NCBI GenBank assembly: GCA_000004985.1
Contig: GG739208.1
From: Naegleria gruberi
Lineage: Eukaryota
Strand: one strand, 5' to 3'
Length of the DNA stretch: 3,753 nt
Shown here: positions 2,409-3,753 of the stretch, in pieces
Layout: each line of letters opens with the position of its first letter
Position numbering within the stretch: position 1 is the first letter of the stretch
The notes under the pieces: generated by a model
What the model was told of the DNA's origin: nothing
Seen by the model: the letters and a program-made list of their open reading frames with translations, nothing else
Database searches by the model: none
Position numbers and translations under genes: made by a program

Positions 2409-2441
2409 AATTCAAAATTTAATTAGCAATTAATTTTTTGA

Positions 2442-2709
2442 TCTGCATACAATCCATATGGATCTGATTTGAGCTCATATTCTTCATCACGTATAGAAGT
2501 AGAACCAGAATCACTCTTTCTTGAGAATTTTGGTGTGGGCATTTTGTGGTTTGTCTCACTCTTTGGTGATGTGGCACTGTATGATTATCAGCAATTTCGT
2601 TAGTTCCCGAGACAACATTCTGGTTGGTGAACAACAACTTGTCGATGCAACACTCTAACGATTTGATAAGTTCAAATTTGGCATCCTTCCTTGACGAATG
2701 ACACACGTG
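2442..2709. other. GC-elevated segment with long open frames on both strands; possible exon, strand and extent unresolved
   Basis: By eye the base composition is clearly less AT-rich than the flanks. The minus-strand frame is open 2419-2709 (96 codons) but begins with GTG in the track and has its first ATG only near its 3' end, so it is not a stand-alone eukaryotic CDS. The plus-strand frame 3 is open 2442-2606 (SAYNPYGSDLSSYSSSRIEVEPESLFLENFGVGILWFVSLFGDVALYDYQQFR*). Confidence 0.2.
2452..2463. repeat. 12-bp perfect palindrome atccatatggat flanked by direct copies of gatctg (2440-2445, 2461-2466)
   Basis: The reverse complement of atccatatggat is identical to itself. Contains CATATG. Confidence 0.6.
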
Positions 2710-2711
2710 TC
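2703..2711. promoter_or_regulatory. 8-bp palindrome ACACGTGT containing E-box/G-box CACGTG; ACGTGTC resembles a plant ABRE/G-box core
   Basis: acacgtgt at 2703-2710 is a perfect palindrome. CACGTG lies at 2704-2709 and ACGTGTC at 2705-2711. It sits about 70 bp upstream of the ATG at 2780. A 6-bp motif is expected by chance at appreciable frequency. Confidence 0.25.
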
Positions 2712-2779
2712 ATCACTTTGACATTGTGAGAGAAGAAACAACTTGGGACGCGTTGTTGTTTAACCTTTGTCATCAAAAA

Positions 2780-2860
2780 ATGGCTTCTCAAGAGAATAAT
2801 ACACCCTACCCTGCTATTTTATCTTTTAAAAGCATCACAGAATTATGTGGTAAAGGCTAG
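2780..2860 (+). CDS. Small ORF MASQENNTPYPAILSFKSITELCGKG* with plant-like initiation context (caaaaaATGGCt). Could be a uORF, a truncated first exon or a pseudogene start.
   Basis: ATG 2780-2782 is preceded by an A-run and followed by GCT: the A at -3 with +4 G and +5 C (ATGGC) matches the dicot consensus aaaaaATGGC. The Met-Ala-Ser N-terminus is common in plants. TAG at 2858-2860. The same frame reopens immediately afterwards. Confidence 0.15.
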   Translation: MASQENNTPYPAILSFKSITELCGKG

Positions 2861-3028
2861 AAATTGGCCCTTAGTGCAGGAGCAAAAAAGAAGTTGAAAG
2901 CAGTAATATTGGAAGCCAAGAAGAAAGGTGAGAAACAGATAGGTACATTATGTCGTCCAAAATACAAAAAATTGTTAGTCCAGAAACATTTTGGACAAAC
3001 ATGTCGGGGTTTGGTTAGGATTCAGAGT
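2861..3028 (+). CDS. Open frame in the same frame as the upstream ATG ORF, Lys-rich (KLALSAGAKKKLKAVILEAKKKGEKQIGTLCRPKYKKLLVQKHFGQTCRGLVRIQS*). Possible exon with a GGTGAG donor-like site at 2929-2934.
   Basis: 56 sense codons without a stop in roughly 33% GC DNA, ending in TGA at 3029-3031. No ATG. AAAG|GTGAGA at 2926-2935 fits a 5' splice-site consensus. No homology recognisable by eye. Confidence 0.12.
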
Positions 3029-3296
3029 TGATTTATTTGGGTTATTTAAGAGATTACTTAGTGAAGATTCATATCATTGATTATATTTCTTATCATCTAT
3101 AAATGATGTAAATTTGATGGTTTCATTTCTTGCATTGATAGATATTTAAAGGTCAGGTCAGTACTAACTTTTGAATTATGGACTTTTAGAAGTCAAATGT
3201 TTGGGACGTGAATCTACTCATTGGATTGAATAGGTATTGCTAATAAAGGAACATTTCATTGATTTATTGATTATAACGGTCAAATTGAGTTGAATG

Positions 3297-3391
3297 GAAG
3301 TGAATCAAATGTTGATTCATCGTGGATGGTGCAACTACCAACCTTTGTAGATTGAATCAGGTTGATGATAGATCAACATTTGATTCACTTC
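3297..3391. repeat. Foldback/hairpin: perfect 20-bp inverted repeat gaagtgaatcaaatgttgat (3297-3316) / atcaacatttgattcacttc (3372-3391). It extends by 5 bp (tcatc 3317-3321 / gatga 3364-3368) across a 3-nt bulge. Loop about 42 nt.
   Basis: Direct base-by-base comparison: the reverse complement of 3372-3391 equals 3297-3316 exactly. The loop contains internal aacc/ggtt complementarity at 3340-3343 / 3360-3363. Confidence 0.85.
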
Positions 3392-3753
3392 GATCGAATC
3401 TTCACAGAAATCACTCTTGAAATATAAACTGTACTACAATGTATGAGAAACATAATGGTGGTGGAATTAATCAGTAAATCGTTGAAATGACTGAGATGGA
3501 ATGTAAACTATGGTCTGTTTTTCATGTAATGGTGACTCGACAGTGTCAGTTTCATCAAATTATTTCAAACTGATTACAATCAATAAAAAACCGTTCTATA
3601 CATCAAACATGTCATATAGAATTAGTTTCAATATTTAATATTGTGAACTGACTCTGTTGGATACCATCTCTATAAATATAACAAGATGAAAAGTGTCAAT
3701 ATTCAATATCACATATATGTTACTTTGAAGAGTCAACATTATATCATCTAGAC

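Follow-up and report, generated by a model that had tools for sequence, protein, structure and literature searches.

A compact foldback with a perfect 20-bp inverted repeat, possibly a young local inverted duplication, in apparently non-coding DNA

We analysed a 3753-nt stretch of DNA (hereafter the window) that contains a compact foldback of about 101 nt (3294-3394) built on a perfect 20-bp inverted repeat. The foldback is real and non-random, yet ordinary in kind. It combines a repeat well outside chance expectation, sharp limits and a stable fold with an absence of family, TSD and copy signals. We hold, at roughly even confidence, that a young inverted duplication arose at this single locus by an event of the template-switch type and that it has no function. 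From this single sequence we infer, as most likely, how the repeat arose by mutation, that it is young and that it lacks function, the last being assumed.

A perfect inverted repeat with sharp limits

The left arm of the foldback, GAAGTGAATCAAATGTTGAT (3297-3316), faces its exact reverse complement, ATCAACATTTGATTCACTTC (3372-3391), across 55 nt. Sequence reading and a pattern search reproduced the coordinates, the perfect 20-bp arms and the separation given in the original prediction, which had also described the repeat as far beyond chance. This description was borne out by a comparison with 300 dinucleotide-preserving shuffles, applied to both non-N parts of the window with a spacer of up to 200 nt allowed, in which the longest perfect inverted repeat reached a maximum of 14 bp, as against the 20 bp observed.

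The limits of the foldback are equally well defined. A repeat search returned arms of 28 nt each at 3294-3321 and 3367-3394 that are 89% complementary, while a gapped local alignment over 3100-3590, in which the left half was matched to the reverse-complemented right half, resolved the pairing into two blocks only. The first block joins 3294-3316 to 3372-3394 and the second, also present in the DNA fold, joins TCATC (3317-3321) to GATGA (3364-3368), with the two separated by a 3-nt bulge, TAG (3369-3371). No further complementarity was found outside 3294-3394 in this alignment. On its outer side, the 20-bp perfect core loses complementarity abruptly, with two outer A-T pairs lying past a G.G mismatch (3296/3392), and the repeat search, the alignment and the folds described below together delimit the whole foldback, given here on the + strand, as a compact and sharply bounded unit. 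The 25-bp stem that had been proposed for it is obtained only if the 3-nt bulge is admitted or, in RNA, if a G.U pair plus a 1x1 mismatch are.

How the inner block relates to the perfect core bears on the history of the repeat. Given a random inner flank, a 5-bp block across the bulge is expected by chance with P ~0.034, while a 20-bp perfect run would survive in a uniformly decayed 28-bp TIR, with 3 mismatches placed randomly, with P ~0.07. A clean 20-nt event and an older 28-nt repeat are therefore both imperfect fits to the data. The inner 5-bp extension may mean that an originally longer repeat of 25-28 bp has since gained an indel, and it is also compatible with a pair of TIRs.

Small palindromes lie within and beside the arms. 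Sequence reading identified a nested palindrome in the left arm, GAATCAA-atg-TTGATTC (3302-3318), which extends 2 nt past the edge of the perfect repeat and is reflected in the inverted 8-mer pair TGAATCAA/TTGATTCA (at 3301 and 3312). In addition, a perfect 10-bp palindrome, TTCGATCGAA (3389-3398), straddles the outer end of the right arm and was recognized through self-inverted 8-mers at 3389-3391. A further feature, the near-duplicate gattgaat(a/c)agg, had been put forward as a hint of local duplication. Both copies are real (at 3224 and 3350), but they are at chance level, since about 10 exact direct 8-mer pairs no more than 200 nt apart occur per shuffle, and the pair is thus uninformative on local duplication.

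The foldback is the sole structural outlier of the window

Folding supports the picture obtained from the alignments. The 131-nt stretch suggested for folding in the original prediction reached -47.8 and -39.1 kcal/mol as RNA on the + and - strands (z -5.7 and -5.1), while the 101-nt hairpin alone yielded -44.3 kcal/mol (z -7.5) and -38.2 kcal/mol (z -7.0), respectively. The stronger fold of the + strand RNA results from a few G.U pairs that turn into C.A on the - strand. As DNA, the hairpin is predicted to reach -24.9 and -23.6 kcal/mol on the two strands, and its MFEI as RNA is 1.2 (+) and 1.03 (-). Among 428 sliding 100-nt windows covering both strands, the hairpin was the only outlier, with all others at -24.7 kcal/mol or weaker. 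The structural part of the earlier interpretation accordingly holds, in that the foldback is non-random, perfect and compact, folds on both strands as predicted and suggests a recent inverted duplication.

The hairpin has 20-21 uninterrupted pairs within a solid helix of 26-28 bp. The minimum free energy structure lengthens this helix to about 41 pairs closed by an 8-nt loop; however, the added upper part is no better than shuffles, as 3317-3371 folded alone gives a z of only -1.37 on the + strand and -0.83 on the - strand. The spacer of 42 nt (3322-3363) thus agrees in length with the loop originally described, whereas the sub-stems ascribed to it do not exceed chance. With the structure of the spacer at chance level, only the duplicated segment looks designed.

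Other parts of the window contain minor structural features. The second most stable 100-nt fold, at 431-530 on the + strand (-24.7 kcal/mol), falls within the background range and includes the pair TCCTCA (437-442) / TGAGGA (453-458) as well as the palindrome TGATATCA (464-471). Within 677-751, the words TTCGCAT (681-687) and ATGCGAA (697-703) form a small inverted repeat, after which comes a short tandem repeat of TTTATTCGAATATAAT (2.1 copies, 720-751). Tandem repeats in the window amount to three trivial short arrays, none of them within the hairpin.

The surrounding sequence resembles non-coding eukaryotic DNA

The window includes a run of 1426 N at 983-2408, which represents a scaffold gap or a masked stretch and leaves 982 nt and 1345 nt of readable sequence on its two sides. 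Its GC content is about 30%, with 25-39% in the flanks of the hairpin. In both readable parts (1-982 and 2409-3753) the CpG observed/expected ratio is about 0.5 and TG and CA are in excess (1.3-1.5), a dinucleotide pattern compatible with a methylated eukaryotic genome or with a general AT-rich bias. GpC is likewise at about 0.5-0.6 in these two parts.

Coding potential was not detected by any of the searches conducted. No ORF longer than 96 aa exists in the readable sequence under the standard code, and ciliate and other variant codes open no long ORFs; the ORF-list entries that exceed 96 aa all consist of X across the N run. Pfam returned nothing credible for the ORFs or for full six-frame translations of both readable parts, and the longest ORF (95 aa) had no protein homologue. 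A 3206-aa concatenate of all six-frame segments of at least 18 aa likewise had no match at E <=0.01 among 5.8 billion proteins. ARAGORN identified no tRNA, and a blastn search of 2409-3753 against phages and plasmids gave no match. On account of the N gap, the GC content of about 30%, the CpG depletion and the lack of an ORF, Pfam domain or protein homologue, the window looks like non-coding DNA from a eukaryotic draft genome.

Upstream of the foldback, the block at 2440-2950 has a higher GC content (35-39%) than its flanks (25-30%). On the + strand, A-rich sequence surrounds an ATG at 2780, GT sites resembling splice donors lie at 2850 and 2928, an AG resembling an acceptor at 2879 and an AATAAA at 3582. 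The - strand has a Ser/Thr/Lys-rich frame that stays open until about 2426. As no frame there has a protein homologue or a Pfam match, any exon in 2440-2950 would be speculative.

Search for relatives and known RNA families

To place the foldback among known elements, we compared it with sequence collections, RNA families and the literature. Exact matches to the arm 20-mer were found in none of the viral contigs but, once each, at 11 prokaryotic loci in 10 genomes and in 3 metagenomic contigs. When the window was compared by BLAST with these 14 loci, similarity was confined to the 20/21-mer, and at all 14 an inverted partner arm was absent within 400 nt (the best candidates had at least 6 mismatches in 20). 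With no shared flanks and no partner arm, these loci were dropped as relatives of the foldback. Because the collections searched are prokaryotic, viral and metagenomic, the lack of a foldback homologue in them says little about a eukaryotic repeat family. Within the 2.3 kb of readable window, no second copy or half-copy of an arm occurs at up to 3 mismatches, and the arm sequences, as DNA or RNA strings, were absent from the 8 million papers searched.

About 9 of the matching loci represent a single conserved intergenic element of about 100 nt in Flavobacteriaceae (Flavobacterium and Olleya). In Flavobacterium anhuiense (locus L002, 6343-6442; equivalents at L004, L005 and L007-L011), this intergenic element carries the same 21-mer, GAAGTGAATCAAATGTTGATT, and it is conserved in at least 7 Flavobacterium species and partly in Olleya. 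It is flanked by repeated TTGATTTTAGATTT words, and at L002 two minus-strand ORFs enclose the element. The element has no Rfam match and no likeness to the window outside the 21-mer.

A comparison with Rfam had been recommended in the original prediction, and it did not favour a known small RNA. With Rfam 15, the best match for the whole window was MIR2275 (18.6 bits against a gathering threshold of 60.5, E 7.6). For the hairpin alone, searched with lax filters, the best matches were MIR1444 (27.1 against 80), mir-577 (24.2 against 100) and MIR8706 (23.3 against 95), so that no family nears its threshold. These sub-threshold matches fall on both strands and are therefore best regarded as what hairpin models generally give for any long stem. 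Overall, the structural part of the earlier interpretation stands, while the identities named in it, a MIRNA-like locus and a MITE relic, receive no positive support from Rfam, from TSDs or from further copies.

A single local event would account for the foldback

Small palindromes nested in or abutting the arms are the setting of classical quasi-palindrome template switching. Given the absence of a TSD and of a family signal, the unstructured spacer and the presence of such palindromes, the sharp perfect core best fits one local event. Under the mechanism we propose, a single mutational event would have written a reverse-complement copy of about 20-25 nt at a distance of about 55 nt from its source, either by template switching during replication or by quasi-palindrome 'correction'. 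This event may have been helped by the small palindromes that the arms and their borders already contained (3302-3318 and 3389-3398), and its outcome would be a sharp-edged perfect duplex. The DNA of the foldback could then extrude a modest cruciform, and a transcript through it, more stable on the + strand, would bear a near-perfect stem of 26-28 bp. A foldback of this origin would be a raw hairpin of the type that, in a small minority of cases, gives rise to a new miRNA or hairpin-siRNA gene.

This proposal has a close parallel in the template-switch-mutation (TSM) hairpins described from primates (Monttinen, Frilander and Loytynoja 2023, PMC10710096). Template switching yields perfect inverted fragments of at least 15 nt, for example 28 nt (PMC10710096), and the foldback, with 20 nt exactly inverted at a distance of 55 nt, lies above this minimum size for an exact inverted fragment of adjacent sequence. 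The likeness extends to the perfect reverse-complement copy beside its source, to the appearance at once of a stem of miRNA size in unstructured non-coding sequence, and to the sharp edges and absence of a TSD. One difference is that the TSM hairpins were inferred from parent-child comparisons on a phylogeny (PMC10710096), whereas the mechanism proposed here is drawn from a single sequence.

Alternative explanations

The same geometry would also be produced by transposition, if the foldback were one of many genomic copies of a very small MITE or foldback transposon with TIRs of about 28 nt and a spacer of about 45 nt, mobilized in trans by a DNA transposase. We regard this as rather unlikely. 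The compact, non-coding layout with TIR-like 28-nt arms at 89% and a 20-bp perfect core is what a MITE would show, and the inner 5-bp extension suggests arms that originally exceeded 20 bp. There is also a weak in-register likeness between the flanks around 3296-3392, where GTTGAAT (3289-3295) and ATCGAAT (3393-3399) agree at 5 of 7 positions; however, a binomial estimate gives such a match a chance of about 3% in each test, uncorrected for multiple testing, and words of the TTGAAT type are frequent in this region. The TSD of the MITE Made1 is TA. Here, no exact TSD of 2-10 bp exists at symmetric boundaries save a trivial AT, and the best at offset boundaries is GAAT. This absence weighs the more because 0 mismatches in 20 arm pairs would imply a very recent insertion, the TSD of which should still be perfect. 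Nor is there a second copy or solo arm in the 2.3 kb of readable sequence, a transposase remnant in the six-frame Pfam and protein searches, or a copy of the foldback in the viral, prokaryotic or metagenomic collections. Palindromic MITEs of very small size are known, as exemplified by Made1, which is 80 bp long and the source of mir-548 (PMC1784062). The foldback resembles Made1/mir-548-type MITEs in being a non-coding element of 80-100 nt with two inverted arms and a short spacer that could give a pre-miRNA-like hairpin if transcribed. Made1, however, has 37-bp TIRs, a 6-bp spacer and thousands of copies (PMC1784062), as against arms of 20-28 bp and a spacer of 42-55 nt here, and the foldback further differs in lacking an exact TSD and any sequence similarity to it. 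A role at the DNA level, in which TGA(A/T)TCA half-palindromes would form a dyad protein-binding site or a cruciform, appears highly improbable. Four copies of this near-AP-1/GCN4-like heptamer lie within 3301-3387 (at 3301, 3313, 3353 and 3381), while about 1 is expected in the 1.3-kb right part (P ~0.016), and both the nested palindromes and the predicted DNA hairpin energies fit such a role. Yet two of the four copies are forced by the inverted repeat and a third by the arm palindrome, so the enrichment for the most part counts a single observation twice. Cruciform extrusion, moreover, is disfavoured by a spacer as long as 55 nt. An assembly or library artefact, that is, a chimeric fold-back read in a draft scaffold, seems barely credible even though the window derives from draft-like sequence that is interrupted by 1426 N. 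The 20-bp arms are shorter than usual assembly k-mers and enclose a unique 55-nt spacer, whereas fold-back artefacts are usually long palindromes running to a contig end, and the foldback lies about 360 nt from the end of the window and about 890 nt from the gap.

A functional reading holds that the foldback is an expressed hairpin RNA gene, a young or proto-miRNA or a hairpin-siRNA, with its 20-26-bp stem diced to about 21-24 nt, which we consider improbable. In its favour, the hairpin is stable and the sole outlier of the window, with an MFEI of 1.2 (+) and 1.03 (-), and the fold of the + strand is better by 6 kcal/mol owing to its G.U pairs. Near-perfect stems are typical of evolutionarily young MIRNA loci. 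A perfect stem is atypical for established miRNAs. For plant MIRNA loci, Axtell and Meyers (2018, 10.1101/213314) specify a foldback of less than 300 nt, no stem or internal loop of more than 5 nt interrupting the duplex, and no more than 5 mismatched positions, of which no more than 3 may lie in asymmetric bulges. The foldback is within 300 nt, its duplex is free of secondary stems and large loops, and its mismatches are within this limit; however, the 20-bp core has none at all, which makes the mismatch limit trivial, and these structural criteria are not discriminating. The defining evidence for a MIRNA is instead a set of miRNA/miRNA* reads from sRNA-seq with at least 75% precision in at least 2 libraries (10.1101/213314). 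The likeness to plant MIRNA and proto-MIRNA foldbacks (10.1101/213314) lies in hairpin length, uninterrupted duplex and high MFEI and is structural only. No Rfam family is matched: all score below 35% of their gathering thresholds, and the weak matches are spread over both strands. The arm sequences are likewise not found in the literature searched. The solid helix of 26-28 bp is shorter than the stem of about 35 bp, with an apical loop of at least 10 nt, preferred by the animal Microprocessor (PMC10710096), and the upper stem is at chance level. Hairpins generated by template switching and by MITEs are documented sources of new miRNAs (PMC10710096, PMC1784062), but the base rate is low. Human genic regions contain 53,666 putative template-switch events, 6,054 of which are miRNA-like in size, and only 0.9% of these suitable hairpins are annotated as miRNAs (PMC10710096), a figure that we used as a prior against function of the foldback. 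The more specific case of a newborn lineage-specific small-RNA gene, a proto-miRNA or hairpin-siRNA that would have arisen by one-step template switching and would be transcribed from the + strand and diced to a 21-24-nt duplex from 3297-3316 / 3372-3391, is a shade less probable again. The transcript of such a putative gene would be small, possibly starting near 2780 and ending near the AATAAA at 3582.

Several other identities were considered by sequence reading and rejected. The 3' hairpin of a Helitron was rejected because the spacer is too long and a CTRR terminus is lacking a short way downstream, and a mirtron because the hairpin does not have GT...AG ends. A viral ITR or replication-origin stem-loop was dismissed for lack of viral ORFs, and a Pol III hairpin gene because the hairpin is not followed by a T-run.

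Implications

In a window with some 2 kb of sequence, a perfect inverted repeat of 20 bp is striking in statistical terms, yet biologically it is commonplace at the scale of a genome. If the foldback is no more than a neutral inverted duplication, it would matter little and would add to the abundant short perfect hairpins found in eukaryotic non-coding DNA, which stem from replication errors or tiny transposons. If it were truly expressed and precisely processed, it would represent a clean case of a small-RNA gene born de novo in one step, of which many are already documented.
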